NCBI RefSeq assembly: GCF_000026545.1
Contig: NC_011601.1
Reading direction: 5' to 3' (one strand)
Source of the DNA: Escherichia coli O127:H6 str. E2348/69
GTDB taxonomy: Bacteria > Pseudomonadota > Gammaproteobacteria > Enterobacterales > Enterobacteriaceae
Length of the DNA stretch: 64,000 nucleotides
This document shows positions 35,751 through 61,796 of this stretch, one piece after another. The translations under genes and the position numbers were made by a program. Numbering within the stretch: position 1 is the stretch's first letter; every line of letters begins with the position of its first letter. The notes below the pieces were generated by a model, which saw only the letters and a program-made list of their open reading frames with translations, did not search any database and was not told where the DNA came from.

Positions 35751-35891
35751 CTATGACAAACCTATGTACCCTGCTATACCAGATAATATTAAAACAACTG
35801 CGACGGCAAATTCCCCATCTTCAATGATACATTTACGGTTCATTACGACAAGCGCGACAAGTGCCAACACAACAAGAATTATAACAATCAT
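35751..35891 (-). CDS. 46-aa two-helix hydrophobic peptide (unannotated small ORF)
   Basis: MIVIILVVLALVALVVMNRKCIIEDGEFAVAVVLILSGIAGYIGLS. Starts 11 nt after the 824-aa gene stop and is followed by a terminator. Confidence 0.4.
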   Translation of the reverse strand: MIVIILVVLALVALVVMNRKCIIEDGEFAVAVVLILSGIAGYIGLS

Positions 35892-35901
35892 TTTCGCATC
35901 C

Positions 35902-38376
35902 TTATTGCGGAGTAACATCCTGAGGTCGCCACCAGTATGTCTGGTTAAATTCTTTCTTCGAACGCTGCTCCATCTTACGCAGATAGCCAGGGGAAAAATA
36001 TTCTTGCATCTGATTAAAGATCATATGATCAAGCGCAGCCTTCAGGTACCAGATGTTGGCACCAGGTGTCAGACCTTTTCCAAGCTTAACCAGATCACCA
36101 CCAGTTTGCTCGCTCTTACCTTCTACCGCATTCAGTGGAATACCCTGGCCTATTTTGATAACGTCATCGACCAGGCCAGCCACCGGTCCGAGCATTGAAG
36201 CCAGTGCGCCGCTTCCGTACCGGGTGTGATCAGACAACAGGAAATCACCGTACAGGCCAAGACCGCCGCCTTTCAGCAGAGCACCAAGCCAGAATTTAGC
36301 AGCATCTTCACCGACCATATCCCGCGGATTACGGCCTGATGCCATGTCATTTAGTTGCTGAGAAAGCGCGCCAAGTATTGTCGTGCTGGCTATAAACGTC
36401 GCGATATAAGCAGCCCGCCCACCAGCAGAAGGCATACCCATAGCCCGCGACCAGTGGCGCATCACGACAGAGATCGGGAATGACTTGAACAAGAATACGC
36501 TGCGGGTTAATTCACCTTTCCATGTTCCGCGCTGAATACCTGAACCGGTAACCATCTGCTCACGCGCGCCCGGAGTTATCACAGCCATGTCAACTTCTTC
36601 GGTAACCGCTCCGAGTAACTTACGCATTGCTTCAAACTTCACGCGCTCCGGTGATCCGAGGTGCTCTACAGCAGCATCGGGTATACGCATGATGCTTTCC
36701 GGAGTCAGCATCGTATCGTTGCCTTTCCCCCAGTCCTCCTGTTGCGCCAGTTTCCACACGCTCCAGTCGGTATCGGTGATTCCTTTGCTTTTCAGTATGC
36801 GGAAATCGTCATTAGACAGGCTTTTCAGATCCGGCGTTCTGGTGACAACATCACCAAGACTGCCCATCATAGTGACACCGTAGGCACGCTTGTGCGCGTC
36901 TGACCACGCAGTTAATCCACTGGCGCGCATAACCGCAGTTGCAGCCCACCGGGAGACAGACGGTCCCATATTATCCATCGCCCAGCGGTTAACGCTGCCG
37001 AGCAGTGATTCCATAGCCAAGCCAGCACGACGAGCCCTGGCCAATTCAGTGCGATTCGTTGGGTCCATAGCTTCAAGCTGGTTACGGAATAGCTGATTCA
37101 TCGGAAGGTTGGTAACCTTCGCTGACAGGTACATGGTTCCAAGATCAGAGAACGATGACAACAGAGCAGAACCGAGACGACTGGCAACCATCCAGTTGCG
37201 GATGTTATCCGACCAGCGCGCAATATGCGGGTTTGCAACAGGCTGAGTTTTACCAGAAATAAAGTTATACAGGTTCTCAGTATTGTTTGCCTGGCGCTCT
37301 ATACTACCGGTATCCTGCGGGTTAGCCGTAGCTGTCTCTGATTTCGTCTGATCCAGCAGTGAGCGGAACACATGATCCGGGTTTGGTCCGTAGGTTTCCA
37401 CCAGCGCAATGTCTTTACTGATACCTTCCAGGTGCCCTACCATGATTTCCCAGAGTGACCGGTCGCCGTACATCTGCTGGTACTGAAGGTATGAATCAGC
37501 GTCTTTAAAGTGGATTTGGCGTGAGGCGTTGCCACGGTTTGCCCGCGCACCGGAAATACGCATACCGGTATCAGTGAGTTTATTCAGGCCACCTGTGGCA
37601 ATCGTGTTATAGGCTTCACCGAGAAAAGCTGATAACTCAGTATCATTCATCAACTGGCCGTCGGCGCGTGTGTAATATTTGCGATCGAGTTTACCAATCA
37701 CATCACTTACCCACTTATCCTTCGATACCGCCCCAACCTTTTCCATAGAGTGGTGCTGTGGTATACCCCAGTTTTCCAGATATCCGATATCACCACCAGC
37801 ATCATTAAACCTGCGGCGCAGTAGCTCAGTAACTTCGCCCCAGGCTTTAGCCCCTTTCATGGCTTTCGCATTGCCAGTTTTCTGGCCGCGCATCTCAAAC
37901 ACCAGATCACGGACTCCGGCTTCATCTTCAAACAGACCGAAGAAACGAGGATCAACAGCCTCGAATACCTCCTGTAACTGGCTTAATGCGTAATCACGGG
38001 TCGCTTTCGTGCGTGACTCAACAGACAGAAAGTTTGATTTACCGTCAGCGCTGAAGGCGATCGTGCGGTTGAGTGCGCCTAGCTTTCCGTCAGCACCCTG
38101 ATAACTGTTAATGAAGTTGTCCAGGCGCTGACGCGCTGCGATGGTAAGCGCGACACGGCGTTTTTTCAGTGCCACCTCTCGCTGCAACTCTTCAGCCGCC
38201 AGTTGCCCGGCTCGGCGCAGGCGTTCAGCGTCGTTAAGTTGACGCCATGACATCGGATCGTCACGGGCAATAGATCGCATATTGCGGTAAATGCGGTCTT
38301 CGATATTCTGTATTTCTCGGGCTGTAAGAGTGCGCTGTGCTGCCTGTTGCACGGCCTGAATACATTCCTGTCTCAT
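35902..38376 (-). CDS. Ejection/internal core protein (824 aa)
   Basis: Third of three giant genes between the tail tube and the tailspike. Position equals T7 gp16 / epsilon15 core proteins. No enzymatic motif recognised. Confidence 0.6.
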   Translation of the reverse strand: MRQECIQAVQQAAQRTLTAREIQNIEDRIYRNMRSIARDDPMSWRQLNDAERLRRAGQLAAEELQREVALKKRRVALTIAARQRLDNFINSYQGADGKLGALNRTIAFSADGKSNFLSVESRTKATRDYALSQLQEVFEAVDPRFFGLFEDEAGVRDLVFEMRGQKTGNAKAMKGAKAWGEVTELLRRRFNDAGGDIGYLENWGIPQHHSMEKVGAVSKDKWVSDVIGKLDRKYYTRADGQLMNDTELSAFLGEAYNTIATGGLNKLTDTGMRISGARANRGNASRQIHFKDADSYLQYQQMYGDRSLWEIMVGHLEGISKDIALVETYGPNPDHVFRSLLDQTKSETATANPQDTGSIERQANNTENLYNFISGKTQPVANPHIARWSDNIRNWMVASRLGSALLSSFSDLGTMYLSAKVTNLPMNQLFRNQLEAMDPTNRTELARARRAGLAMESLLGSVNRWAMDNMGPSVSRWAATAVMRASGLTAWSDAHKRAYGVTMMGSLGDVVTRTPDLKSLSNDDFRILKSKGITDTDWSVWKLAQQEDWGKGNDTMLTPESIMRIPDAAVEHLGSPERVKFEAMRKLLGAVTEEVDMAVITPGAREQMVTGSGIQRGTWKGELTRSVFLFKSFPISVVMRHWSRAMGMPSAGGRAAYIATFIASTTILGALSQQLNDMASGRNPRDMVGEDAAKFWLGALLKGGGLGLYGDFLLSDHTRYGSGALASMLGPVAGLVDDVIKIGQGIPLNAVEGKSEQTGGDLVKLGKGLTPGANIWYLKAALDHMIFNQMQEYFSPGYLRKMEQRSKKEFNQTYWWRPQDVTPQ

Positions 38377-38380
38377 TCAA

Positions 38381-40183
38381 TTATCCTCTCAAGAAACACG
38401 CTACAGCCACGTCAAAAAGGCTGGAATCCTGTACTGCCTGCTCATTCTCTCTGCTCACTTCGTCCAGCACTTCCCGAGCGCTGCGCGACTGTGGGTTTCC
38501 GTCATCATCGAGAATGGTGATCATCATGTCAGGTGACTCAACAAGCGAGTCTTCAGCGATACGCAGATCCATATCTCCGGCCTGTTCAGCCGTTGGCCTT
38601 TGCTCTGCATGTCGCAATACAGCACCAGGTTCAAAAGGTGCAGCCTCGTCAGGAGTCCGCACTTCTGCTGTTTTATAGAATGACATGGCCTGTGCGTTAA
38701 GATCGCTTTCTGCCTGCTGGCGTCTGGCTAATTCAGCCCGCGCTTCAAAGTTAACCCCTCCCTCAACATTCGCCGCCAGATTATCCTTTGCCGTCTGTAG
38801 TCTGACCGACTCGTCATTGATACGCTGGTCAATATCACGCAGCCTTTCCTGACGCGCTGCACGTGAACGTGATAATTCACGTCCGCTGCCTGAAGGTTGT
38901 TCGTTCAGGACTCCTGAGCGTTCCTGGTTGAGTGTTTCAATGGATCTCTCGATGCCAGCGATATCAGTCTGCAACTGATTAACCTGCTCAACGTCTAAAG
39001 CCTGAGCCGCTTGCTGTTCCAGCGCTCTGGTATCAACAGCTATCTGAGTGCTTCCTTCTTCAGAGCGATACAGGGTTTCATCTATGGCCTGAGAAATAAG
39101 GTTTCTCCTCCCAGGAATATCGCTAAATGATGCTGGTTCGGCAATGCTGGCCACATCAACTGCACGACCCTGGCTTACATCGTTCATTGCTTTCTGTAGC
39201 GCCTGTATATGCGCATCACGTGACAGAACATTAACCGGAACACCAGGAGCAACATCGATCTCAGCGTGATGTGAGGCATTTGCTGCCAGCGCTGCATCCA
39301 CCTCCGCTGGGGAAAATTCAGGAGTTGCAGCGCTCTCACCGCGGGCGTTCAGGAACCTACCTACACCACCAAATGCCACACCAAGAACCGCATCGATGGC
39401 GATAGACTGGCGATCAAACACATCGTACTGAGCCGCCATTTCGTTATAACCACCATCACGCAGCGTCTTTGCAGTCAGCCCACGCTGGGCCATCCCAAAG
39501 GCAATGTTAGTTCCGGCTGCGTATGCGATATCTGGAGCAGCGCGAACAGCAGTAGCTGCAACATTACGCACAGCACTTTCACCTGTCCTCGCTAGTTGTG
39601 CGCCAACACTTTCTGCCAGCGCACCACCAGCGCGCAGACCGAGGCTCATAGGGATCAATGTACCAGCGCCAGCAGTGACACCCTGCACCAGACCAGCTTC
39701 CTGAGCGGTCCTGAAATCTACGCCCTGAGCAGTCAATTTCTCAAACTCAGAGAAGCCCTGCAGTGCAGTGACGGCAGCAGCACCACCGGCTGGACCGGCC
39801 AGCAGCGTACCAACGACAGCCTGCCCGCCCATATCGAACAGACCATTCAGTACCTGACCAGCAGTTCCTGTTGTGGCGGCGTCAGGAGTCAGGCGCTTAA
39901 CTTGCTGCTCTGCGAGTTTTCGCTGTTCGCCGATGTATTCAGCCGATGTATCATTGATGGAAGTGTTTTCGTTAACAAACTTAGCGATGGGTGAAACGAT
40001 CTTATCCATTCCAGCCCAAAGAAGCTGGTCTGGTTTGGCAACCAGTCCAGAGTAAAGGCCCGAAACAGCAGCAGTACCTGAGTTATCGAAGAAACCGACA
40101 TCGGTATTAAACCCTGCTGGGTTAGATGCCGCTTCATCCAGTTGCTGATTCTGGTTAACTGCGTTGAGACCAAAGTAACTCAT
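38381..40183 (-). CDS. Ejection/internal core protein (600 aa), Ala/Gly-rich N-half, coiled-coil C-half
   Basis: Large ORF overlapping the upstream gene stop by 4 nt. Composition typical of internal virion proteins. Confidence 0.6.
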   Translation of the reverse strand: MSYFGLNAVNQNQQLDEAASNPAGFNTDVGFFDNSGTAAVSGLYSGLVAKPDQLLWAGMDKIVSPIAKFVNENTSINDTSAEYIGEQRKLAEQQVKRLTPDAATTGTAGQVLNGLFDMGGQAVVGTLLAGPAGGAAAVTALQGFSEFEKLTAQGVDFRTAQEAGLVQGVTAGAGTLIPMSLGLRAGGALAESVGAQLARTGESAVRNVAATAVRAAPDIAYAAGTNIAFGMAQRGLTAKTLRDGGYNEMAAQYDVFDRQSIAIDAVLGVAFGGVGRFLNARGESAATPEFSPAEVDAALAANASHHAEIDVAPGVPVNVLSRDAHIQALQKAMNDVSQGRAVDVASIAEPASFSDIPGRRNLISQAIDETLYRSEEGSTQIAVDTRALEQQAAQALDVEQVNQLQTDIAGIERSIETLNQERSGVLNEQPSGSGRELSRSRAARQERLRDIDQRINDESVRLQTAKDNLAANVEGGVNFEARAELARRQQAESDLNAQAMSFYKTAEVRTPDEAAPFEPGAVLRHAEQRPTAEQAGDMDLRIAEDSLVESPDMMITILDDDGNPQSRSAREVLDEVSRENEQAVQDSSLFDVAVACFLRG

Positions 40184-42690: not shown

Positions 42691-42702
42691 TTCTATGTCT
42701 CC

Positions 42703-47114: not shown

Positions 47115-47127
47115 AACGGACTCCTGC

Positions 47128-47149
47128 AATAAAGGGGCCGAAGCCCCTT
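47128..47149 (-). terminator. Hairpin attenuator/terminator after the capsid gene cluster
   Basis: GGGGC-4nt-GCCCC stem extended by A:T pairs, with T-rich tracts on both strands. Confidence 0.6.
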
Positions 47150-47165
47150 GTTTGATTAGCGAGGC

Positions 47166-47546: not shown

Positions 47547-47556
47547 CGCTATCCCC

Positions 47557-49760: not shown

Positions 49761-49774
49761 ACGTTACCTTCTTG

Positions 49775-52283: not shown

Positions 52284-52297
52284 CTCTGCCTACTCCG

Positions 52298-52504
52298 TTA
52301 CTGACCAAGCAGCGTTTTACCGCTGGTGTTTGCGGTTGAAGTGTCACCCTGCGCACCAGTCAGCAGAGTAGAGCTGCGCCCTGCTGCTGCGCGGCGGCGG
52401 CGCTCTTCGTCGTCACGAGAACTGACAACTGCTGCATCCTGCTCCTGTGGCGCAGCCTGTACTTCTGGCGCTGCTGGCACTGATGGCTTGCTGCCGATAC
52501 ACAT
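52298..52504 (-). CDS. 68-aa Pro/Ala/Arg-rich protein preceding portal
   Basis: ATG behind GGAG (8-nt spacing). MCIGSKPSVPAAPEVQAAP... Confidence 0.5.
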   Translation of the reverse strand: MCIGSKPSVPAAPEVQAAPQEQDAAVVSSRDDEERRRRAAAGRSSTLLTGAQGDTSTANTSGKTLLGQ

Positions 52505-52593
52505 AGCAATAGCTCCGTACGCAATTAAATTATTACCAATTTAACCACATATGATTTATTTAGCGTAGGATATTGACACTTATAACATCAGAT

Positions 52594-52610
52594 ATTACCT
52601 TTTAGGTAAT
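52594..52610. promoter_or_regulatory. Repressor operator, perfect ATTACC-TTTTA-GGTAAT, at 5' edge of the RNA island
   Basis: Exact 17-bp operator palindrome. TTGACA at 52573-52578 lies upstream but no good -10 is visible. Confidence 0.7.
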
Positions 52611-52855
52611 TGGTTCGTGTGTTGAATTGATGAATTGCGGAGGTGGTTATGTAACCGCTTGTGCAGTAGCCCGGAGTACCGCAGCAATAAATTGGGCTTA
52701 AAAGTAAAGGCGGTGGATAAGCGGAGCATCATCTCCGCACATAACTAAAAGCGCGCTTCAGTGAATGACCTTTGAGCCTGGTCGTTAAATCCAAACGGTG
52801 GAGTGCGCTTTCAGGTGTGTAGCAGTACGGCATATGGCACATGTGCCGCAGCGGT

Positions 52856-52891
52856 CCGGATGGGTTCCCTTGATGCTACTTCCCCAGCCGG
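52856..52891 (+). repeat. Hairpin 1 presenting loop motif TTCCCTTGATGCT (52865-52877)
   Basis: CCGGATGGG / CCCAGCCGG stem (one mismatch) with an 18-nt loop. Confidence 0.55.
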
Positions 52892-53055
52892 GTAGCCGGA
52901 ATGTGCAAGCCAGTGTTAGGTAAGCACGGACAGACGATTCACCATCGTGGCGATACGGTGTGACACCTCGGAAGAGACGAGGATGCAACGATGATAGCAT
53001 TGGGGTGACCGGTTAATCCCATGACGATAACCGATACAGGCGCAGTGCTCTCTTC

Positions 53056-53169
53056 GTTGTGGTTAGCTCAGATAGGTTAGAGCTCCATCCATGCTTGCCA
53101 TTGCTGCATGGGCGGGGAATGGGTTCCGAAAGGATCGCCGCGCAGGTTCGAATCCTGCACCACAACCCA
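53056..53169 (+). ncRNA. tRNA-like module (114 nt) with encoded CCA; canonical acceptor, D and T arms but no canonical anticodon loop
   Basis: G-1 + TTGTGGT pairs with ACCACAA + C73, then CCA. D arm is GCTC-AGATAGGTTA-GAGC. T arm is GCAGG-TTCGAAT-CCTGC. 57 nt lie between D and T stems, where a class I tRNA has about 23. Confidence 0.6.
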
Positions 53170-53224
53170 ATCACGCCTTAGGACCGTGATGAAGCGCCCA
53201 TAAGAACAATGCTGTGTAGCCTTT

Positions 53225-53259
53225 GGCGGTGGCAGTTTCCCTTGATGCTGACCACCGTC
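53225..53259 (+). repeat. Hairpin 2 presenting loop motif TTCCCTTGATGCT (53237-53249)
   Basis: GGCGGTGG / CCACCGTC stem with a 19-nt loop. Confidence 0.55.
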
Positions 53260-53338
53260 ACTTTTACACCAGAACGCCATTGCGATGACGTTGCGCTGTA
53301 AACCCGTAAGCCATGGAAGGCACCCTTGCTTCCATTTC

Positions 53339-53363
53339 GCCCGGTTCGTCCGGGCATTTTTTT
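53339..53363 (+). terminator. Intrinsic terminator between structured RNA and the 143-aa ORF
   Basis: GCCCGG-TTCGT-CCGGGC followed by A and T7. The RBS of the next ORF starts 1 nt later. Confidence 0.85.
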
Positions 53364-53375
53364 AAGGTGATTAGA

Positions 53376-53807
53376 ATGAGTAAAGACCTGTTCGACATGA
53401 AGCGCCTTCCGGTTGACCGGGTTGCTGCGAGAGTTGTTGGTAAGGGCGTTGATTGGACGCCAAATAAAGTTATTCAAACTGGTGACAGCGATCTTCCGTT
53501 GCCAGTATTTCCTGCATATAACATTAAAAACCCGCAACAACGACGCGAAGTGCAAGCAATGATCGGAAGAAAGAGCGGGAGATTGACAATAATTGGTCTC
53601 GCGGTCACACAGGGAGCAAAAAATAAAGGGGCTCGCTATGTTGCTCGTTGTGTTTGCGGGATTTATACGTATCGCAGAGCAAAAAATTTCAAGAATAATT
53701 CTGATGATTTTGACGGATGCGAGCGCTGCAGAGAACTGTTGTTTCTCAAAAGGGAAGAAGTTAAACGCAGAACGGGAAAATGGGTTGACTGGAAAGAGCT
53801 GATGTAA
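53376..53807 (+). CDS. 143-aa basic zinc-ribbon protein of unknown function
   Basis: ATG 53376 behind AAGGTGA; the track start 53313 lies inside a hairpin. C-terminal GRLTIIG..ARYVARCVCG(23)CERC pattern resembles a widespread uncharacterised phage zinc-ribbon family (recollection). Confidence 0.6.
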   Translation: MSKDLFDMKRLPVDRVAARVVGKGVDWTPNKVIQTGDSDLPLPVFPAYNIKNPQQRREVQAMIGRKSGRLTIIGLAVTQGAKNKGARYVARCVCGIYTYRRAKNFKNNSDDFDGCERCRELLFLKREEVKRRTGKWVDWKELM

Positions 53808-53810
53808 GAC

Positions 53811-53824
53811 TGTGACACGTCACA
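53811..53824. promoter_or_regulatory. Palindrome TGTGACACGTCACA (copy 2 of 3 of GTGACAYGTCAC)
   Basis: Perfect 14-bp palindrome between the 143-aa ORF stop and its terminator. Confidence 0.5.
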
Positions 53825-53827
53825 ACT

Positions 53828-53851
53828 AGCCCGCCGATGCGCGGGCTTTTT
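53828..53851 (+). terminator. Intrinsic terminator of the island (abuts terL stop)
   Basis: AGCCCGC-6nt-GCGGGCT followed by TTTTT on the + strand. No T-tract on the minus strand. Confidence 0.8.
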
Positions 53852-55332
53852 CATGCATAGGGATCGTACTCTGTGAGAGCCTTGCCCTGTTGGCTCTGTT
53901 GCTGCCCATAGTTAAACTGTTTTTTGGTGACCGGCGCGGCATATGTCAGCACGTAGGCGTCGGCATCGTTCGGGGATCTGCCAAGCAACTCTTTGACTTC
54001 TTCCTTGTCCTGCAAAATCTTCCTGCTGTCCTTCAGCCTGACCTTGTACTCCGGCGCACTCAGCTCATCGGCAAGGTTCTGGCTATCCAGTTGCGCCCCA
54101 AGCTTCAGTGCGTCGCGGGCTGATTTGTACATCTCCCCGCGCTTATTGCCCATCTCGGGATCCGCGGTACCGCTTCCGAACTGAATCAGCGTCCAGTTTC
54201 GCCCCCAGTTATCGCCAACTGATTTAAGCCCGGTCCCGTACCCGTAATCGATAAACACAGCATCGGCCTGGTACTGGTCCTCGAAGTCGGCAATTATTTT
54301 GGCAAACAATACGTCGTCAGTGGTGCGTTGCCACTCCCCGAGTTTCTTACAGTGCAGTCCCTGCCGAAGATAGATAACCGCCGGGTCTTTACCCTGGTGA
54401 GACGGGTCGACGCCAAGAACTACAGCAGCGTGCTGAACCTGTGCCGGAGTAATAACCCTGCCAACAGCTGGCTGAGTCAGGCCAGACGGAATGAACTGGT
54501 TTTCAGACGCATCAGGGAAGATCCCGCGCACGCGAACCTTCACGAAGTCGCTGTCTTCGCCGTAGTCGTCCACCCACTTTTGCAGTTGCTGCTTGTTGGT
54601 GCCTTCCACGGTGCGGCTGTCAATCTGCGCGCACTTCCAGCGGTGTTTGTACTTGCGGAAACATTCACGGAAACGCCCGGTGTTACGCGTCGGGTTACCG
54701 AACGCCACCCAGATGATTTCGGTGTCTTCGTCCGTCAGCGCCCCTTCAGCTACCTCCCACACCAGATCGGCAATGTTGGATGCTTCGTCGAATACCACGA
54801 TGATGCGCTTGCGCTCGTTGTGCAGCCCTGCGAACGCCTCGGTGTTGTGTTCAGACCATGGGATTGCGTCAGCGCGCCAGCGTTTATCGTGACCGGGATC
54901 GTTGCTGTACATCGCTGTGGCGGTGCAGGTGAACCACTCTTTCGTAATAGCCAGGTTCGACCATTTGATGATTTCCGGCCATGTCTTGGTACGCAACTGA
55001 TTGTCGGTGTTGGCGGTCACCACCACCTTGCAGTCCTCGCAGGTGGACATGCCCCAGTTAATCAGCATCGAGATGAAAGCAGATTTGCCGATACCATGGC
55101 CGGATGCGCGCGCCAGCATCAAAGGCTGGTGACGCGTCGCTGGGTTCTGGAGGTGATCGCGTATCTCGCGGAAGGCGTCAGCCTGCCACTTTCTGGGACC
55201 TGTGGCGTGCGCCAGCTCTGTGCCATCCTCTCCCCACGGAAACGCGTACAGCGCATAGCCCAGCGGGTCATACGTGAACGAGGCGATATCCTCAACGAGC
55301 TGCTCTTCCGGCGACATGGCTTCGGCTGTCAT
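53851..55332 (-). CDS. Terminase large subunit (493 aa)
   Basis: Walker A-like ARASGHGIGKSAF, Walker B VVFDEAS, and a C-terminal nuclease-like region. Overlaps the terS stop by 4 nt. Confidence 0.88.
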   Translation of the reverse strand: MTAEAMSPEEQLVEDIASFTYDPLGYALYAFPWGEDGTELAHATGPRKWQADAFREIRDHLQNPATRHQPLMLARASGHGIGKSAFISMLINWGMSTCEDCKVVVTANTDNQLRTKTWPEIIKWSNLAITKEWFTCTATAMYSNDPGHDKRWRADAIPWSEHNTEAFAGLHNERKRIIVVFDEASNIADLVWEVAEGALTDEDTEIIWVAFGNPTRNTGRFRECFRKYKHRWKCAQIDSRTVEGTNKQQLQKWVDDYGEDSDFVKVRVRGIFPDASENQFIPSGLTQPAVGRVITPAQVQHAAVVLGVDPSHQGKDPAVIYLRQGLHCKKLGEWQRTTDDVLFAKIIADFEDQYQADAVFIDYGYGTGLKSVGDNWGRNWTLIQFGSGTADPEMGNKRGEMYKSARDALKLGAQLDSQNLADELSAPEYKVRLKDSRKILQDKEEVKELLGRSPNDADAYVLTYAAPVTKKQFNYGQQQSQQGKALTEYDPYA

Positions 55333-55922
55333 TCTTCACCACCAGCCCGCTCTTTCACGCGACGGCGGGCCTTAGCCATGCGGTCGGCAATGGTGACGGT
55401 GCCGGAAACTTCCAGGCGCTCTTTGAACGCATTGACGTCGACGTGCTTACCAATCAGCTCGAGGTTCTTCACCTTGTCAGGCCATTTGATTTTCTTGAGG
55501 ATGGTCTCGATTGATGTCTCATCCATGTTCATGATGGTAGAGGACAGGTCGAAACCACTCAGTGTGGTGCGCCATATCTTCGGCCACTCGCGGATAGGCT
55601 TCAGGGTGCCATCATCGTTCAGGATGTCGATCACATCCATCTGGTCGATTTCCACCAGGCGAAGTAGCACGTAATCAGCACTGACGCGCAAACGCTTGTT
55701 GCGTTCCTCCATCAGCTCGGCGATCCGTTTCTGGATGCGCTCATCACGCATCATGACACTGGCTTTAACCGCTGCCGTATTAGGCGAGAACCCTGCGTTA
55801 ATCGCCGCCTGCGTCTGATTCTCAGGGCATTTGGTATATTCCTGCGCATAAGCCTCCTGCATCGCTGTTAGGGGCTTGTACTGAGTTGATTTTCGTTTTG
55901 GTGCTTTTGGTTCTGCGGGCAT
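55329..55922 (-). CDS. Terminase small subunit (197 aa)
   Basis: Start set at ATG 55922 (MPAEPKAPKRK..). Carries an HTH-like AINAGFSPNTAAVKASVMM segment typical of small terminases. Confidence 0.75.
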   Translation of the reverse strand: MPAEPKAPKRKSTQYKPLTAMQEAYAQEYTKCPENQTQAAINAGFSPNTAAVKASVMMRDERIQKRIAELMEERNKRLRVSADYVLLRLVEIDQMDVIDILNDDGTLKPIREWPKIWRTTLSGFDLSSTIMNMDETSIETILKKIKWPDKVKNLELIGKHVDVNAFKERLEVSGTVTIADRMAKARRRVKERAGGEE

Positions 55923-55941
55923 TGTTACCACCGAAGTAATA

Positions 55942-55958
55942 ATTACCGTTTTGGTAAT
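55942..55958. promoter_or_regulatory. Repressor operator, perfect ATTACC-GTTTT-GGTAAT, 20 bp upstream of terS
   Basis: Exact operator palindrome between the early-operon terminator and terS. Confidence 0.7.
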
Positions 55959-55966
55959 AGTAACAC

Positions 55967-55994
55967 GCAAAACAAAGCCGCCATAGTCGGCGGC
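55967..55994 (-). terminator. Intrinsic terminator separating early genes from the late (terS) operon
   Basis: Minus strand reads GCCGCC-GACTAT-GGCGGC followed by TTTGTTTTG. Confidence 0.75.
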
Positions 55995-56017
55995 CATTGC
56001 AATTTATTGTCGATATC

Positions 56018-56029
56018 GTGACATGTCAC
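56018..56029. promoter_or_regulatory. Palindrome GTGACATGTCAC (copy 3 of 3)
   Basis: Overlaps the stop of the 112-aa gene, upstream of the terS leader. Confidence 0.5.
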
Positions 56030-56364
56030 ACTGATAATTTAGTTTCATGCCAGCCACGAGTTACCCAACATGCCGAATCACCATCGCACGGACACGACTT
56101 AACTGGTAATACATCGCCGCATTTTACGCAGCGGTTAGCACTGATTGACTTGATACGAACACGAACGCGGGCATTATCCTGACGGATAAGCAACGCGATG
56201 TACTCGCTCATATCATACGGCGCACGACCAGGGCGACGGGCGGCGCAGTTACGCGCCAGCATTTCCATTTCCTGCTCGTCGAGTTGCAATTCCATCTTGC
56301 GGTTACCGGCTTCAGCCAGACGGGCACGCTGCGCGGCTTTGCGTTCTGCTGTGGATTTAGCCAC
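56026..56364 (-). CDS. 112-aa putative DNA-binding protein (RHH-like N-terminus, Cys-rich C-terminus), GTG start
   Basis: MAKSTAERKAAQRARLAEAG..MELQLDEQEMEMLA resembles ribbon-helix-helix regulators. The C-terminus has CVKCG..CPCDGDSAC. Last early gene before terS. Confidence 0.5.
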   Translation of the reverse strand: MAKSTAERKAAQRARLAEAGNRKMELQLDEQEMEMLARNCAARRPGRAPYDMSEYIALLIRQDNARVRVRIKSISANRCVKCGDVLPVKSCPCDGDSACWVTRGWHETKLSV

Positions 56365-56479
56365 GGATAGCGCTCCATGCCAGATTAATTAATGATTCCC
56401 AGGCGATGTAAACCCTGATTCCTGCAGCCACGCCAAACCCGATTATCATGGAGTAAAGCAGAGCGTCGCACTTGGACAT
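56357..56479 (-). CDS. 40-aa hydrophobic peptide (unannotated small ORF)
   Basis: MSKCDALLYSMIIGFGVAAGIRVYIAWESLINLAWSAIRG. ATGA overlap with the upstream stop and GTGGCTAA overlap with the downstream start. Confidence 0.4.
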   Translation of the reverse strand: MSKCDALLYSMIIGFGVAAGIRVYIAWESLINLAWSAIRG

Positions 56480-56901
56480 CACTTCACCTCCTGCTGTGGT
56501 GCTGCTGCTAAATGCTCGACACCTTTAGCCCAAATAGCTTTGATGGTCGTCCATGTGACAGGAACGGTGATTTCAATTCTTCCGCTGCCGTCGCAGGTTT
56601 CGCAATCATCATCACCAAAACACTCTGGGCAGTTTATAAATTTCGTTTCTGAAAACTCACCGGACAACACACCCTTTGCGCCGTTCTCAGCGGTTAGCTT
56701 CTTCGGCACTAGTACGTAACCATCCGGAGATACCGGAGAGTTGCCAGCCTGAAGCATGGCTGCGCGGAGTTGTTGTAGTTCGGCCAGCGCTAGCATTACA
56801 TCATCAATGACAGGCAACTCCATTTCATACAATTCAAGAGAATCCCTAGCCACACGGATAAGTACGCTCAGACGCTCGTCTGTTAGGTTGTTATTGGTCA
56901 T
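56479..56901 (-). CDS. 140-aa early protein with DnaJ-type CxxCxGxG zinc-finger-like motif
   Basis: CPECFGDDDCETCDGSGRI. N-terminus MTNNNLTDERL is paralogous to the next gene upstream. Confidence 0.55.
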   Translation of the reverse strand: MTNNNLTDERLSVLIRVARDSLELYEMELPVIDDVMLALAELQQLRAAMLQAGNSPVSPDGYVLVPKKLTAENGAKGVLSGEFSETKFINCPECFGDDDCETCDGSGRIEITVPVTWTTIKAIWAKGVEHLAAAPQQEVK

Positions 56902-57194
56902 TTTTCATCTCCTTTAAGCATGGCGGCGCGGCAGTCACATTCGATGAGTATCGGCTCTCCCCATGGCTGAACGCCGCCACTATCAGCCATTCCGGTGTCG
57001 TTACATTTAGGACAAGGTACTGGCTCCGCACTAAACGATGCAATCACTCCATCAATCACCTTCACAGCATCAGCCATTGCGTAGCCGAGATTGCCTCCGT
57101 CACTTTGTGCTGCTGCTTTGCTGAGTATTTCGCTTATCTGGTGCAGGCGATCGAGTGATACAGGACCGTTCGCCGGGTGGTTGTTAGTTGTCAT
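56898..57194 (-). CDS. 98-aa early protein, paralogue of the 140-aa protein
   Basis: MTTNNHP..LDRLHQISEIL and CPKCNDTGM..CDC motifs. Confidence 0.55.
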   Translation of the reverse strand: MTTNNHPANGPVSLDRLHQISEILSKAAAQSDGGNLGYAMADAVKVIDGVIASFSAEPVPCPKCNDTGMADSGGVQPWGEPILIECDCRAAMLKGDEK

Positions 57195-57204
57195 GGGTTA
57201 GTCC

Positions 57205-57411
57205 TCAGTTGTAACCAATCGGATTAACTGCAACCAGAACGCCGTCTGCGAACAGGTCTTTAATAATGTGCTCACACGGCTCGCCTGTTTCGTACTCTTC
57301 AACCAGGTACGTGTCGCCATCTTCATTGAGATAAACAGGAAAGATGGAACCATTGATAAAGTAGGTGCCGTTGTTATCAAGAATCTTTGCTTCTGCAATT
57401 TGTGTTTTCAT
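57205..57411 (-). CDS. 68-aa early protein of unknown function
   Basis: ATG 57411 behind GGGAGG (MKTQIAEAKILDNNG..). The track start 57438 would overlap the upstream gene. Confidence 0.5.
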   Translation of the reverse strand: MKTQIAEAKILDNNGTYFINGSIFPVYLNEDGDTYLVEEYETGEPCEHIIKDLFADGVLVAVNPIGYN

Positions 57412-57413
57412 TG

Positions 57414-57665
57414 TTAGTCCTCCCACTCTGTATCCCATTCAACCCAAGCGCCTTCACCATCAGCCTCGATAACACCCTGATTGCCACACTGCGGACACTT
57501 AACCAGGTCACCGCCGTAAAGGTATGTCCCTGCCAATGAGCGACTGATAACTTCAATCCCCTTGCTGCACTGGCAGTGTTCGCACGAATTAAGCCAGTCA
57601 ACGCGATATAACACTGGCTCCCACAACATGGTTTTGCTCTCACTTTGGAACAGCAATCTGCTCAT
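57414..57665 (-). CDS. 83-aa zinc-ribbon early protein
   Basis: CEHCQC(23)CPQCG four-Cys pattern. Confidence 0.5.
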   Translation of the reverse strand: MSRLLFQSESKTMLWEPVLYRVDWLNSCEHCQCSKGIEVISRSLAGTYLYGGDLVKCPQCGNQGVIEADGEGAWVEWDTEWED

Positions 57666-57964
57666 ATCTCCCCCTTCACGCCAATGCCAGCGGCGCTTTC
57701 TAACAAGTCGTCAGCGGCCTGAATATCAGCGCCATCCAGCGATGCGCCATCAGCCGCAGCACGGAAACAGGTTTTGACAAATTCCTTCAGCCCCGCATTC
57801 TCCGCAGCCAGAGCATTACTACGAGCAAGTTGCACATCCAACTGCGTTGCCAGATCGCTAATCAGTTGTGCCACGTCTCGCACATCGACGGCGCCGCATG
57901 ATGCCTTCAGCTCTGCGGACTGATCATGTCCGCGCTTTACCAGATCACTCACTTTGCATTCCAT
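57662..57964 (-). CDS. 100-aa acidic helical early protein
   Basis: ATGA overlap with the downstream gene. Confidence 0.45.
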   Translation of the reverse strand: MECKVSDLVKRGHDQSAELKASCGAVDVRDVAQLISDLATQLDVQLARSNALAAENAGLKEFVKTCFRAAADGASLDGADIQAADDLLESAAGIGVKGEI

Positions 57965-58025
57965 CTTTACCCCCGCTTACCCGTATAAGTTATTGATTAC
58001 GTTGATATCCAAAAGGATCATCGTT

Positions 58026-58367
58026 TCAGAACGTTTCGCAGTTCCAGCCACCACCTTTGCTTTTCGGTATTGGCTTTAGCGCTCTAAACGTGAATGGGTA
58101 CATGTCTGCGGCTACCTTGATTTTCACCCTGGCGTCATCAGTCCAGAACCCTTTCACCTCGTGCAATTCCATCTCTCCGGTGGTTAGCATCACCGCGAAG
58201 TCCGGCGTGTAGAACGTGTTATCAGCCAGCCTCAGCTTGATGCCCTCAAATTTGTACCAGGCTACGACAGTGCCGGTTATGCGCTTTAGGTGTGCCGCAT
58301 AAGCCTCTTCCGTCTTGTTCATCTGGCCTGTCTTGAGCCTTCCGAGCGCCTGCAACTGCCTTTTCAT
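58026..58367 (-). CDS. PD-(D/E)XK-type small nuclease (DUF1064-like, possible Holliday junction resolvase)
   Basis: 113 aa with YTPDF..ELHEVKG (D..E.K) motif. Position after the replication genes. Confidence 0.55.
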   Translation of the reverse strand: MKRQLQALGRLKTGQMNKTEEAYAAHLKRITGTVVAWYKFEGIKLRLADNTFYTPDFAVMLTTGEMELHEVKGFWTDDARVKIKVAADMYPFTFRALKPIPKSKGGGWNCETF

Positions 58368-58431
58368 GATTTACCTCTCAGGTAATTTAAAACCACAAAC
58401 GAGTTAATTTCAATAGCAATGCGCATATTTT

Positions 58432-58448
58432 ATTACCTTTTTGGTAAT
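58432..58448. promoter_or_regulatory. Repressor operator, perfect ATTACC-TTTTT-GGTAAT, inside the early operon
   Basis: Lies between the P-like gene stop (58485) and the nuclease gene start (58367). Confidence 0.7.
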
Positions 58449-58484
58449 TCACCAGATGTAAAAAAATGCGCTACTGCGCCGGTA

Positions 58485-59270
58485 TTACTTGATGAGTCCC
58501 GCTGCCTTCCCTCGTCTGTATTCCTCCATAAGCCACTGTGCCGGTGTTATCCCTCCCAGGGTGGCTGCGTTCGGCATGCATCCGAAACTTCGCCCTGGTG
58601 GATGATAGGCGTTACCTGAGCCTGTTGGTGGTGTGCTCATTGGTTCTGGCTTGGCCTGTATGCTGAGTATTGGATCTGGAATCTGGTGACCGGATGCCAC
58701 TTTTGCCGACCATTCATCCAGCAGCTTTCGCGCATGCTTCTCGACTTCAGCCTCACTCAGTTGTCGCTGATACATCGCCCTGCGGGTATCACACACAATC
58801 CAGTACATGACCGGGTGGCGCCACGGGAATCTCTCGGGTCCACCAGGCTGGAGGCTTTTCTCTTTGGCGTAACGGTGAAACTCACCCATCACGTCTTCGA
58901 TGCTGATTCCCAGCACCATCTTGCTGTCTTTGCACCACTTGATGAATTGCCCAGGCGAAGGCCAGAACGGTGATTCACTGGCGCGGGCATGGCGCATTCC
59001 TGCCGATACCTGCTCACGGGTACGAACACCACCTTCAGCGAATGCAGCGATCCACTGCTGTTTTGCCGCTGTCTCCTGTGCCGGAGTCTTCAGGTTGGTC
59101 TGTTCTGCTGCCGGGAATAGCTGCTTAAGCTGTTTAAACAGGGCATCCACAAGTCGCTCTGCCGTAATGTTCACAACGTTGTCGCTACCTGCATACTGAC
59201 GGTCTGATCCGGTTAATTGGGCCATAGCCTCAGCGTCTCGGTTCTGGATGGCGGTAAATACGTTATTCAC
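58485..59270 (-). CDS. Lambda P-like replicative helicase loader (GTG start)
   Basis: Central ..QQWIAAFAEGGVRTREQVSAGMRHARASESPFWPSPGQFIKWC aligns by eye with lambda P ..RRQWVLAFRENGITTMEQVNAGMRVARRQNRPFLPSPGQFVAWC. GTGA overlap with the O-like stop behind GGAGG. Confidence 0.8.
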   Translation of the reverse strand: MNNVFTAIQNRDAEAMAQLTGSDRQYAGSDNVVNITAERLVDALFKQLKQLFPAAEQTNLKTPAQETAAKQQWIAAFAEGGVRTREQVSAGMRHARASESPFWPSPGQFIKWCKDSKMVLGISIEDVMGEFHRYAKEKSLQPGGPERFPWRHPVMYWIVCDTRRAMYQRQLSEAEVEKHARKLLDEWSAKVASGHQIPDPILSIQAKPEPMSTPPTGSGNAYHPPGRSFGCMPNAATLGGITPAQWLMEEYRRGKAAGLIK

Positions 59271-60073
59271 AGGAAATCCTCCCACGCCTCTGGACTGTTC
59301 CAGTGCGGTACGTTGTTTTCAGGTGAGGTCAGTTTGTTCTGTCTGCTGATCTGCAGACGTCTGGCAAGTTTTTGCTCCCATTGCGCATGGTGGAAAGCCT
59401 TACCCTCGGCCATCCAGTAAACCCTGAACTCTGCAAGCTCCTGCGGTGTTGGCTGGCAATCCAGGTTAATACCCTGCAGAGATGACACCCGGAGAAAATC
59501 ATCCGATGGTGACCAGAGCTCATGCATGACAAATTTCCCGAATTGCCCAAGTCCACCAGGAGGGACAAAGTTGTTAATTACGGCGTTGTTGGCGTCAGGT
59601 TCAGGCGGTACTAAACCACCAGTTTTATCGCCCCTCTCCTTCTCTTGGTTATATGACTGGTTAACTGATAGGTTCTGCATCCCGTTTTTGGGATCATTCA
59701 ACTTCCCGTTTTTGGGATCATTCAACTTCCCGTTTTTGGGTATACTCCCAATTTTGGTAACATTACCGTTTTTGGGTATACTCCCAATTTTGGTAACATT
59801 ACCGTTTTTGGGTATGTTTAAAGAGAAAACCCGGACCCTTCTTGTTGCCCCTTTTCTTTCTCCTGTATCTGAAATTAACCCCATACCGATGAGCGAAATC
59901 AGCCCTGCCTGAACCGTTTTTTTATTCAGGCTTGTGTCGGTAACCAGGCGTTCGATGCTTGGATAACACAGGTTATATTCATCGGCTCGATCAGCCATCG
60001 AGAGCAGGATGAGTTTCAGTGATGAGCTGCCCGGATTTGTTTTCCATGCCCACTCTGTTGCGTGTCTGCTCAT
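59267..60073 (-). CDS. Replication initiator (O-like; N-terminal winged-HTH, internal iteron-encoded repeats, DnaT-like C-terminus)
   Basis: 268 aa. The peptide repeats PKNGNVTKIGSI x2 and PKNGKLND x2 are encoded by the ori iterons. Sits upstream of the P-like gene. Confidence 0.75.
   Translation of the reverse strand: MSRHATEWAWKTNPGSSSLKLILLSMADRADEYNLCYPSIERLVTDTSLNKKTVQAGLISLIGMGLISDTGERKGATRRVRVFSLNIPKNGNVTKIGSIPKNGNVTKIGSIPKNGKLNDPKNGKLNDPKNGMQNLSVNQSYNQEKERGDKTGGLVPPEPDANNAVINNFVPPGGLGQFGKFVMHELWSPSDDFLRVSSLQGINLDCQPTPQELAEFRVYWMAEGKAFHHAQWEQKLARRLQISRQNKLTSPENNVPHWNSPEAWEDFL
59681..59813. repeat. Origin of replication iterons inside the O-like gene
   Basis: CCCGTTTTTGGG(A/T) at 59681, 59705 and 59729 (24-bp period). 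Then CCCAATTTTGGTA / ACCGTTTTTGGGT alternating at 59747, 59765, 59783 and 59801 (18-bp period). Confidence 0.75.
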
Positions 60074-60088
60074 GGTAAATACCTGTCG

Positions 60089-60289
60089 TCAGCTTGAATG
60101 TTGCAGGCTGGCTTCGGCCATGAGCTGCTTTATTTCTGCCTGGCGGCGCAGGCTTGTGTTGATGGCGCACGTAACGCAGTGCCCGTTATAAACATAACGT
60201 TCACTGTCATGACCATGCTTACACTGCTTGCCGGTGTAATAACGCTTAAGACCTGCCTTTGCAGCGTCAATACGAGTAATAATCTCCAT
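60089..60289 (-). CDS. 66-aa zinc-ribbon protein (CxH..CxxC), possible regulator
   Basis: YYTGKQCKHGHDSERYVYNGHCVTC pattern seen in small phage regulators. Lies between the cro-like and O-like genes. Confidence 0.5.
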   Translation of the reverse strand: MEIITRIDAAKAGLKRYYTGKQCKHGHDSERYVYNGHCVTCAINTSLRRQAEIKQLMAEASLQHSS

Positions 60290-60349
60290 TGCACAACCTC
60301 ATTACCGTTTACTATTACGATGATTTTGATGCAGGAAGAAAAAAAGATC

Positions 60350-60364
60350 AACCGTATATGGTTT
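60350..60364. promoter_or_regulatory. AACCGTATATGGTTT motif, 61 bp upstream of the zinc-ribbon gene
   Basis: One mismatch from the palindrome at 30216. Confidence 0.4.
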
Positions 60365-60367
60365 TTT

Positions 60368-60384
60368 ATTACCAGAAAGGTGTT
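60368..60384. promoter_or_regulatory. Degenerate operator ATTACC-AGAAA-GGTGTT
   Basis: Left half perfect; right half matches 4 of 6. Confidence 0.4.
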
Positions 60385-60436
60385 TTATGCAGGAAGGAGC
60401 CGCCATGGTATGACGGCATTGATGGGTTCAGAGGGA

Positions 60437-60670
60437 TTATCGGTCGTAGAAGAAGAGCACTAATTCAGGTTTAGACTTTGTCCATTCGCGGGAGCGACAC
60501 GCTTTAAAAAGACCTTCCATCAGACGCTTACCCGGCATCTTACGGCGACCGGTCAGGTGCGTCTGGATGTAATGACTGGTGGTACCGGCTTCAACTGCAA
60601 ATGCTTCACGCTCATCAGGAGACAGCCCCAGCCAGTGCTTTTTGAAATCAAATTTTTTTTCGTCACTCAT
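60437..60670 (-). CDS. Cro-like HTH regulator (77 aa)
   Basis: First leftward gene from the operator cluster. HTH segment FAVEAGTTSHYIQTHLTG. Confidence 0.65.
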   Translation of the reverse strand: MSDEKKFDFKKHWLGLSPDEREAFAVEAGTTSHYIQTHLTGRRKMPGKRLMEGLFKACRSREWTKSKPELVLFFYDR

Positions 60671-60708
60671 ATTTTGCTTATCTCAGCCTGTCTATTCATA
60701 TCTGAATT

Positions 60709-60772
60709 ATTACCTTTCTGGTGAAAAAATCAATGATTATTACCATTATGGTAACTTTACCTTTATGGTAAT
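60709..60772. promoter_or_regulatory. Right operator cluster (three sites) with divergent cro and cI promoters
   Basis: ATTACC-TTTCT-GGTGAA (60709-25), ATTACC-ATTAT-GGTAAC (60739-55), TTTACC-TTTAT-GGTAAT (60756-72). Leftward promoter candidate: -35 TTGATT (60728-33), -10 AATAAT (60706-11), 16-nt spacer. Confidence 0.7.
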
Positions 60773-60825
60773 ATTCATTTAAATTTAGAAGGTTAGGTAA
60801 TAATAAATGGGCAAATACAATAGCT

Positions 60826-61422
60826 ATGAAAAGTATTTATGACATAAGACGCAAAAACCTTAACGAAATCATTCGCCGGGATTTCGATGACACCCAGTTA
60901 CGCTTTGCAGAACGGGTGAAGCGTTCGCAGAACCTGGTCAACAGGTGGTGTACTGGTATCAAAAATATCGGACCTAATGCCGCGCGTATCATCGAAGAAG
61001 CAGCCCGCAAAGAAAAGTTCTGGCTTGATGTCGATCACGAACTGGACGCAGTACAGGATGATATCTTTATTCCGGCCACTGAAGATGGAGAATGGACTGT
61101 AGAGAAGCAGGCCGCCGCCACGCTCAATGCCTGGATGAGAAAGAACAGTGAAATGACATCCGAAAAGAAAGTTGCTGTTGCAGCTGGCATTGGACCTGCC
61201 ACCGTTAACCGCATCATGAAAGCGGAAGTCAGCACAACCATCGGCGTTCTTTCCTCCCTGGCGCGCGCGTTCGGGCATGAAGCATACGAGATGATTATTC
61301 CCGTCGGCTCACCTGGTGTTATCGACTATGACCACCGGATGTATGCAGCCCTGCCACAGGAAGAGAAAAACAAGATCACCTCATTCATCAACTTCGTGTT
61401 TGAGCAGAACAAAAGCAAGTAA
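60826..61422 (+). CDS. Prophage maintenance repressor (CI-like) with two HTH_3/XRE-type domains and no S24 peptidase domain
   Basis: 198 aa. HTH 1 is TQLRFAERVKRSQNLVNRWCTG. HTH 2 is SEKKVAVAAGIGPATVNRIMKAE. Divergent from cro across the operators. No Ala-Gly/Ser-Lys autocleavage module. Confidence 0.7.
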   Translation: MKSIYDIRRKNLNEIIRRDFDDTQLRFAERVKRSQNLVNRWCTGIKNIGPNAARIIEEAARKEKFWLDVDHELDAVQDDIFIPATEDGEWTVEKQAAATLNAWMRKNSEMTSEKKVAVAAGIGPATVNRIMKAEVSTTIGVLSSLARAFGHEAYEMIIPVGSPGVIDYDHRMYAALPQEEKNKITSFINFVFEQNKSK

Positions 61423-61479
61423 TCCCCCGCCATTCTGACGCTTTACCTGCCCAATGGCGGTAGGCTCACGCCTCACTCA

Positions 61480-61634
61480 ATTACCAAAATGGTAATTTTT
61501 TCTCGTCATACCTATTGACACAATCACTTTTTGATCTGATTATTACCTAAAAGGTAATACAAGAGCGCATTGCTCAGGCAGAAACCACCACTTCGTGGCT
61601 TTCCTGTATCTACTAGTATTACCAAAATGGTAAT
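61480..61634. promoter_or_regulatory. Left operator cluster (three perfect sites) with rightward PL-like promoter
   Basis: ATTACC-AAAAT-GGTAAT (61480-96), ATTACC-TAAAA-GGTAAT (61542-58), ATTACC-AAAAT-GGTAAT (61618-34). -35 TTGACA at 61515-20, -10 GATTAT at 61538-43. Confidence 0.7.
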
Positions 61635-61646
61635 AGCGAGGTTTGT

Positions 61647-61796
61647 ATGCAGTGGAAAATCATCAACGGTTGGTACTGCGTTACAGCTTGCGGGCTGATG
61701 AGCTGGAAGTTCCGCACGCTGGGTGAAGCAATGAACTGGGTATTCGTCAGCAAGCTGGCGGTAAAAACAGAAATGGATATGGGGGTGAGCAAGTGA
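61647..61796 (+). CDS. 49-aa first gene of the PL-like operon (unannotated small ORF)
   Basis: ATG behind GAGG. MQWKIINGWYCVTACGLMSWKFRTLGEAMNWVFVSKLAVKTEMDMGVSK. GTGA overlap with the next gene. Confidence 0.4.
   Translation: MQWKIINGWYCVTACGLMSWKFRTLGEAMNWVFVSKLAVKTEMDMGVSK

Follow-up and report, generated by a model that had tools for sequence, protein, structure and literature searches.

The closest precedent for one of the genes studied here comes from a short-tailed phage. In the temperate phage P22, sieA is located between the ejection gene 16 and the ant/tailspike region, its product is found in the inner membrane, and it belongs to a highly diverse gene family (PMC10883804); in epsilon15, gp17 has been placed in the IVP-D family as a homologue of T7 gp16 (PMC4819975). 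Here, we analyzed a stretch of 64,000 nucleotides (nt) of Escherichia coli O127:H6 str. E2348/69 (NC_011601.1; this whole stretch is called the window below), with a focus on three small open reading frames (ORFs) which an earlier note, made from the sequence alone, had described as unannotated, translationally coupled genes for small membrane proteins. The left flank of the window is 100% identical to E. coli O127:H6 E2348/69, and from ~28 kb onward nucleotide searches assign the window to the genus Uetakevirus, with the Salmonella phages SPN1S, SPC32H, and PAT1 as nearest relatives (92–94% identity around ORF1), followed by the E. coli phages phiV10 and epsilon15. By this similarity, the host of the three ORFs is an epsilon15/SPN1S/phiV10-like Uetakevirus prophage of E2348/69. 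The RefSeq record shows yfgI and guaA on either side of it, with a tyrosine integrase gene adjoining guaA; the same integration site has been reported for the related phage vB_EcoP_ZX5 (PMC9782041). The coordinates, lengths (46, 40, and 49 amino acids [aa]), and sequences given in the earlier note for the three ORFs proved exact:

35751–35891, minus strand: ORF1, 46 aa, predicted hairpin of two transmembrane (TM) segments; family phrog_7892.
56357–56479, minus strand: ORF2, 40 aa, predicted single-TM peptide; family phrog_5525; WP_000030836.1.
61647–61796, plus strand: ORF3, 49 aa, soluble, Trp-rich, predicted beta-beta-beta-alpha fold; family phrog_898; WP_001198622.1.

ORF1, ORF2, and ORF3 are genuine protein-coding genes under purifying selection, as the note had supposed when it took them for real genes whose frames should be conserved in relatives. 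To follow the frames, related loci were gathered from IMG/VR and from phage records (n = 49 for ORF1, 66 for ORF2, and 81 for ORF3), an intact frame being one with a start codon and with the stop at the same position, and the ratio of nonsynonymous to synonymous divergence (dN/dS) was computed for all six frames from pooled pairwise Nei–Gojobori estimates. ORF1 is intact, with ATG and a stop at codon 46, in 42 of its 49 loci (44 with two 48-aa forms included), ORF2 in 61 of 66 with ATG and in 63 if GTG is accepted as a start, and ORF3 in all 81. The dN/dS of the annotated frame is 0.26, 0.29, and 0.15 for ORF1, ORF2, and ORF3, respectively, and in each case the lowest among the six frames; the antisense frame that shares the wobble positions has a similar value, as expected. 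Synonymous divergence is substantial for the three ORFs (proportion of synonymous differences, pS, 0.32–0.43), and third codon positions hold most of the variable sites in all of them. Because the frames are intact in nearly all related loci and show the lowest dN/dS of the six, we consider the three ORFs real genes. It should be noted that the window contains 112 ATG-started ORFs of 40–59 aa, so that the mere existence of three such frames is not above chance; their conservation is.

The genes are at the same time already known: GenBank, RefSeq, and PHROGs list them under the name of hypothetical proteins. Each matches a PHROG hidden Markov model over its full length: ORF1 phrog_7892 (E = 2.9e-29, residues 1–46 against profile positions 1–46 of 46), ORF2 phrog_5525 (E = 2.8e-28, residues 1–40 of 40), and ORF3 phrog_898 (E = 3.2e-31, residues 1–49 of 50), all three being families listed with unknown function. 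Annotated orthologues of ORF1 are PhiV10p21 (YP_512275.1) and SPC32H_019 (AGR48757.1, "putative integral membrane protein"), counterparts of ORF2 are annotated in phiv142-3, EC.W1-9, SJ46, and vB_EcoM-813R1, and ORF3 corresponds to epsilon15 gp37 (NP_848245.1). The view that these are phage genes missed in annotation thus did not hold, since records of related phages carry an annotation for each of the three. Their description as unannotated is accurate for ORF1 in the RefSeq record of E2348/69; ORF2 and ORF3 carry the accessions WP_000030836.1 and WP_001198622.1 in the same genome. ORF1 alone is uncalled, in both E2348/69 assemblies, and its orthologue is called in strain JML285. Homologues of the three ORFs are distributed over Escherichia, Salmonella, Citrobacter, Klebsiella, Raoultella, and others, all labelled "hypothetical protein." A literature search found no ribosome-profiling or proteomics data for this prophage; the same search, which did not cover key epsilon15 papers, found no mention of epsilon15 gp18, gp37, or gp48.

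The surroundings of ORF1 bear the closest comparison with the described systems, and comprise the following features:

35902–38376, minus strand: gp17-like virion/ejection protein of 824 aa, homologous to T7 IVP-D/gp16; phrog_684; last gene before the cargo slot.
35899–35903, minus strand: ribosome-binding site (RBS) of ORF1, AAGGA, overlapping the TAA stop of the gp17-like gene.
35744–35901: cargo slot with the window allele (ORF1), from the gp17 stop to the palindrome.
35732–35743, strand not applicable: 12-bp palindrome GTGACATGTCAC, invariant, forming the right-hand border of the slot.
35703–35730, minus strand: rho-independent terminator AGGCCGC-AATA-GCGGCCT with T-run (hairpin 35730–35713), which ends the gp15–gp17–ORF1 transcript.

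A distance of 10 nt separates the start of ORF1 from the gp17-like stop, and short gaps or overlaps of this kind bear out the tight coupling to neighbors claimed for all three ORFs. The two hydrophobic segments of ORF1, and its position between the last ejection gene and the terminator, are likewise as previously described: The grand average of hydropathy (GRAVY) is 1.99, two windows exceed 1.8 on the Kyte–Doolittle scale, and the layout consists of TM1 (residues 2–17), a loop NRKxIIEDGEF, which is the best-conserved stretch of the family, and TM2 (residues 28–46). An in-frame ATG further upstream, at 35918, would yield a form of 55 aa; in the slot-157 alleles, whose slot is shorter by 1 nt, this ATG is out of frame, and the form that is conserved is therefore that of 46 aa. 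The GC content of ORF1 is 0.38 (0.34 at third codon positions, GC3), compared with 0.52 (GC3 0.45–0.53) for the flanking structural genes. From its hydrophobic segments, ORF1 looks like a small membrane protein, and we propose that it would be made as a two-TM inner-membrane hairpin from the late transcript directly behind the last ejection gene, its translation probably being coupled to that of the gp17-like gene. Both PhiV10p21 and SPC32H_019 have 46 aa, share 83–89% identity with ORF1, and occupy the same place between the gp17 homologue and the terminator; the phiV10 record describes "two predicted transmembrane helices" for PhiV10p21, and nothing of substance distinguishes it from ORF1.

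To interrogate what is found at this position, we compared 80 loci (L216–L295) in which the gp17 C-terminus is at least 96% identical to that of the window. The palindrome GTGACATGTCAC followed by the GGCCGC hairpin terminator is found 157–615 nt past the gp17 stop in 78 of the 80; the remaining two end at a contig boundary, so that the palindrome is present in all 78 complete loci, whatever the cargo. This cargo includes the ORF1 family, a pair of a 57-aa two-TM and a 98-aa three-TM protein, which is the commonest allele in E. coli, other TM proteins, and lipoproteins with a signal peptide and lipobox, and it differs while the gp17 C-terminus stays 96–99% identical. Among 5,426 complete E. 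coli genomes, the gp17 3' end is found in 188, only 12 of which carry the ORF1 allele, and the break in homology is located at the gp17 stop codon. ORF1 is thus one of several alleles found in a slot for envelope-targeted cargo that is hypervariable and sharply bounded. Epsilon15 gp18 (64 aa, two TM) and Tyrion gp19 (103 aa, two TM) lie in the same slot, from the gp17 stop to GTGACATGTCAC and the terminator, as does Orf12 of phiv142-3 (phrog_3075), a small multi-TM protein like the other two; all three (64, 103, and 98–118 aa) are unrelated in sequence to ORF1 and are alternative cargo rather than homologues. In phiv142-3 (L199, MN187550.1), an unannotated 57-aa two-TM ORF (VFLIILSVIISGVLLFIDRYKYFLNPQTQAICWFIFVVQG...) is also present on the minus strand of the locus at ~1490–1320, between the gp17 homologue and Orf12, and is conserved in dozens of IMG/VR contigs.

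The palindrome itself, which is a perfect one, occurs three times in the window, at 35732–35743, 56018–56029, and 53812–53823 (the third copy reading GTGACACGTCAC). Each copy is at or just past a stop codon (those of ORF1, of the gp49-like gene introduced below, and of a plus-strand ORF ending at 53807, respectively) and just before a rho-independent terminator. The combination of palindrome and GGCCGC hairpin is found on at least 120 IMG/VR contigs, mostly of 38–44 kb; the palindrome may serve to bind a protein or to mark the boundary of a module.

The position of the slot recalls P22 sieA. Like SieA, ORF1 is predicted to be located in the inner membrane and is encoded directly past the last ejection gene, before ant and the tailspike gene, in a short-tailed temperate phage. 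The likeness is one of position and compartment, without sequence similarity: SieA has ~162 aa, three TM segments, and its own promoter active in lysogens, whereas ORF1 has 46 aa, two TM segments, and no detected promoter. By this analogy ORF1 could be an accessory envelope protein that blocks DNA delivery across the inner membrane, a positional analogue of SieA, which we put forward as a tentative proposal. Of the three ORFs, ORF1 is the only one for which the context suggests some support for an exclusion-type role. A more far-reaching version, which we rate lower still, would make the interval from gp17 to the palindrome a dedicated diversity hotspot for envelope-targeted immunity proteins, with ORF1 as a minimal exclusion or ejection-blocking factor. 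The loop NRKxIIEDGEF would then contact the incoming ejectosome at the inner membrane, and the unit of GTGACATGTCAC and terminator would act as a recombination and expression boundary permitting cargo swaps.

The short distance to gp17 could also be read differently, with ORF1 and its slot-mates as partners of gp17, either virion-packaged membrane-insertion factors or assembly chaperones. The start of ORF1 10 nt past the gp17 stop fits such a role, as does the overlap of epsilon15 gp18 with the gp17 stop (ATGA), and the combination of no own promoter found with a terminator directly after the gene implies late coexpression with gp17. An obligatory partner would, however, be expected to covary or to be conserved with gp17, whereas here unrelated proteins, periplasmic lipoproteins included, replace the cargo next to a gp17 C-terminus that is still 96–99% identical, and ORF1 occurs in just the 12 of 188 E. 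coli prophages noted above. Because gp17 is near-invariant while the cargo is swapped, an obligatory structural tie is unlikely and an accessory role likelier; we consider the partner explanation unlikely overall, and retain that of an accessory envelope protein as the working proposal for ORF1.

ORF2 lies in a different part of the prophage, and its immediate neighborhood is as follows:

56479–56901, minus strand: upstream ORF, joined to ORF2 by TGATG; called by the NCBI Prokaryotic Genome Annotation Pipeline (PGAP) as an N-terminally truncated pseudogene, 56479–56766.
56487–56491, minus strand: RBS of ORF2, GGAGG, within the 3' end of the upstream ORF.
56026–56364, minus strand: gp49-like "transcriptional regulator," 112 aa; phrog_536; its GTG start overlaps the ORF2 stop.

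The overlaps claimed for ORF2 are both present: Its ATG has one base in common with the upstream TGA (TGATG), and its TAA lies within GTGGCTAA, where the gp49-like gene downstream has its GTG start. With a GRAVY of 0.95 and one hydrophobic segment of 22 residues, ORF2 looks like a small membrane protein, so that the designation as membrane proteins stands for ORF1 and ORF2, though not for ORF3 (see below). The hydrophobic stretch carries a GFGxxAG motif and is followed by a conserved C-terminal WESLINLAWSAIRG. Since the C-terminal 20 residues are also found fused to foreign N-termini, the two halves were analyzed separately, and each is under purifying selection (dN/dS 0.15–0.26). In these chimeric ORFs (P0113–P0117; L070), the 20 residues IRVYI[AT]WESLINLAWSAIRG stand on unrelated N-termini, which indicates recombination breakpoints inside ORF2, with the 3' 60 nt travelling with the gp49-like gene.

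ORF2 is found at the end of a delayed-early region of the ead/Ea22/DUF551 type, with the gp49-like regulator and the terminase genes immediately downstream. PGAP calls two further truncated genes after the 56479–56766 pseudogene in the ead-like region, and the prophage there therefore appears partly decayed. In lambdoid relatives, a DUF551 gene occupies the place of the upstream ORF, and in Klebsiella lambdoid prophages the 40-aa ORF2 gene follows it, again overlapping by 1 nt, and precedes the nin/Q region. Counterparts in phiv142-3 (Orf32, QGF19637.1), EC.W1-9 (WYA78225.1), and the Punavirus (P1-like) SJ46 (gp090, YP_009293547.1) all have 40 aa and share 58–88% identity with ORF2; the lowest of these values belongs to SJ46, where the neighborhood is unrelated, whereas the Uetakevirus counterparts show the same double overlap with their neighbors. 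Epsilon15 and PAT1 encode an unrelated gene of 84–90 aa (gp48) in this slot. Judged by this distribution of homologous sequences, ORF2 is a small mobile accessory gene common to podoviral, lambdoid, and P1-like prophages. We propose that it would be produced from a delayed-early "ead/nin-like" region, in translational coupling to both neighbors, as a single-pass membrane peptide of 40 aa, and that it may act in lytic growth as an oligomerizing inner-membrane peptide.

The third gene is located in the immunity region, where it is surrounded by the following:

60826–61422, plus strand: HTH_3 prophage repressor; genes of the ORF3 family always follow it directly.
61480–61496, 61542–61558, and 61618–61634: three repressor operators ATTACC-N5-GGTAAT, the third ending 12 nt before the ORF3 ATG.
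61515–61543, plus strand: PL-like sigma-70 promoter TTGACA-17-GATTAT.
61638–61641, plus strand: RBS of ORF3, GAGG.
61793–62752, plus strand: gene for a 319-aa protein; phrog_1376; its GTG start overlaps the ORF3 stop (GTGA).

These features reproduce the GAGG RBS, the GTGA overlap, and the place as first ORF after a PL-like promoter that had been ascribed to ORF3. ORF3 is not a membrane protein: Its hydrophobicity is low (GRAVY 0.22, top 15-residue Kyte–Doolittle window 1.2), and an AlphaFold2 model shows a beta-beta-beta-alpha arrangement (predicted local distance difference test score, pLDDT, 70.6). Conservation is strong in the N-terminal 38 residues (MQWKIINGWYCVTACGLMSWKFRTL.EA..WAF..K.A), and the C-terminus varies. 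The family is a narrow one: A profile search of 1.84 billion representatives matched only 19, clustered at 50% identity, and gave no link to a larger family. Down to 29–47% identity, the order of repressor, operators, ORF3, variable genes, DUF3799 exonuclease, and RecT is kept, ORF3 having a fixed place past the operators, with the HTH_3 repressor gene ~160 nt upstream, as the first gene of the leftward early operon (the second in one case), and nucleotide conservation of ORF3 across the genus exceeds that of its flanks. In epsilon15, gp37 is likewise a 49-aa protein, whose gene comes first after three annotated operators of the repressor and precedes the recombination module; the window differs in the insertion of the 319-aa gene (phrog_1376) between ORF3 and the gp36 homologue.

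The operator ATTACC-N5-GGTAAT occurs 10 times in the window (0.13 expected), and in the epsilon15 record the same sites are labelled as bound by the repressor. The copies start at 35348, 52594, 55942, 58370, 58432, 60739, 60756, 61480, 61542, and 61618, and outside the leftward and rightward operator (OL/OR) regions the motif is found ahead of ant and the tailspike gene, ahead of terS, and in the stretch that separates terL from the portal gene. The minus strand carries an ORF of 94 aa (61524–61808), which spans ORF3 and the operator region and is open in all close relatives; it gains stops in distant homologues, where the forward frame is intact, which makes a side effect of ORF3 codon structure the probable explanation. 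As the first operon gene behind the repressor operators, ORF3 is expected to be immediate-early and repressed in the lysogen. We propose that this soluble 49-aa protein would be the first product of the leftward early promoter under repressor control, its gene preceding the RecE-like/RecT recombination module, and that it may bind another protein, as a regulator or host-takeover factor.

Small size and location also call to mind well-characterized peptides, and ORF2 could be a toxic membrane peptide, type-I-toxin-like or Kil-like, which depolarizes the membrane or blocks division, with ORF3 as a lambda CIII/Kil analogue in the PL operon. The size of ORF2, its single TM, and its GxGxxxG-like motif are typical of small membrane toxins, and ORF3, similar to lambda kil and cIII, is encoded in a repressor-controlled leftward PL-type operon upstream of exo and RecT, near exo/bet-type genes. 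Against this, at E <= 1 Pfam returned for ORF2 nothing but a chance match to DUF2109, without any Hok, Ldr, TisB, or Ibs family; Lambda_CIII was not matched in Pfam either, and the Rfam scan of the whole window matched no RNA family, antisense RNAs included. Homology of ORF3 to lambda CIII or Kil was rejected, with hhalign probabilities of 0.7% and 0.15%, respectively, and no Pfam match. Lambda CIII is an amphipathic helix, unlike ORF3, which is predicted as mostly beta with one helix and, in contrast to CIII and Kil, is the first gene of its operon. We therefore regard this explanation as improbable, and keep to a lytic-growth membrane peptide for ORF2 and an immediate-early protein-binding role for ORF3.

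More doubtful still is a function of ORF1 in lysis timing, as a class II holin, antiholin, or pinholin type of protein. Its two TM segments and late expression would be compatible with this, and there is a weak match to the holin family phrog_6384, which is, however, not significant (E = 0.22). The prophage encodes a complete lysis cassette elsewhere, at ~28.3–30.2 kb and ~6 kb from ORF1, with two holin-like genes, a GH19 endolysin, and a DUF2514 gene in RefSeq, and the lipoprotein alleles in the same slot would be unfit for a holin role. The idea that the three ORFs are chance open frames, or conserved non-coding DNA of a regulatory or boundary kind that stays open by accident, is very hard to credit and already disfavoured by the selection analysis: The 112 similar-sized ORFs, the joint movement of the ORF2 3' 60 nt with the downstream gene in chimeric variants, and the antisense strand of the ORF3 region, likewise open in close relatives, could be cited for it, but variation falls mainly at third codon positions with the lowest dN/dS in the annotated frame for all three, the C-terminal half of ORF2 has a pS of 0.32 and a dN/dS of 0.15, SJ46 retains a 40-aa protein of 58% identity in an unrelated context, and the ORF3 antisense frames are interrupted by stops in distant homologues.

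We consider it very likely overall that the three ORFs are genuine, conserved Uetakevirus genes, each in a catalogued family; the roles proposed above are more tentative. Several observations weigh on the other side. Two ORF1 loci are frame-shifted and five ORF2 variants retain the C-terminal 20 aa only; with some family members disrupted or chimeric, the genes would be dispensable. Scans of the three proteins against Pfam, NCBIfam, and PADLOC gave nothing significant, profile searches against PDB sequences gave no match, and no exclusion family is among the PHROG, Pfam, and PADLOC matches to ORF1 at permissive thresholds. ORF1, with its 46 aa, is far smaller than SieA. A weak scan found no sigma-70-like site within 600 nt upstream of ORF1 on its strand, and the sole promoter-like match in 35300–36500 falls within ORF1; expression from the repressed prophage, as needed for classical superinfection exclusion, is therefore unsupported.

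Further features of the window were observed outside the three genes. The late-operon leader (55922–56029) contains, in this order, the second palindrome copy, a promoter-like GTGACA-17-TAAATT, a terminator (55995–55976), an operator (55942–55958), and terS. A terS start at 55997 (mechanical call) or 56003 (PGAP) would read through the terminator; the annotated terS of relatives has 197 aa, matching a start at ~55922. This layout recalls terminators that lie close to a promoter and require antitermination. A 1.5-kb insert (52284–53850) separates terL from the portal gene and carries a plus-strand ORF (53376–53807) with its own palindrome and terminator, and PGAP calls a 113-nt "pseudogenic tRNA-Gly" in it at ~53057–53169, where neither ARAGORN nor Rfam detected a tRNA. 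From the lysis cassette to the tailspike gene (30351–32525), there are a 335-aa hypothetical gene and a 357-aa acyltransferase-family gene on the opposite strand. These would be cargo for lysogenic conversion (O-antigen modification), comparable to the O-acetyltransferase of phiV10. GC content is low (0.40) in the tailspike gene as well.

As originally stated, the finding of three small coupled genes is correct but ordinary, and adds little; the sole concrete annotation fix is the addition of ORF1 to the RefSeq record of E2348/69, and the description of the slot behind gp17 is the most useful by-product of the analysis. For the biology of the Uetakeviruses, ORF3, as the conserved gene that comes first out of the immunity region, bears on the understanding of their lytic switch. 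ORF1 is a small candidate, accessible to simple tests, for a new factor by which epsilon15-like phages would exclude others or block DNA entry.

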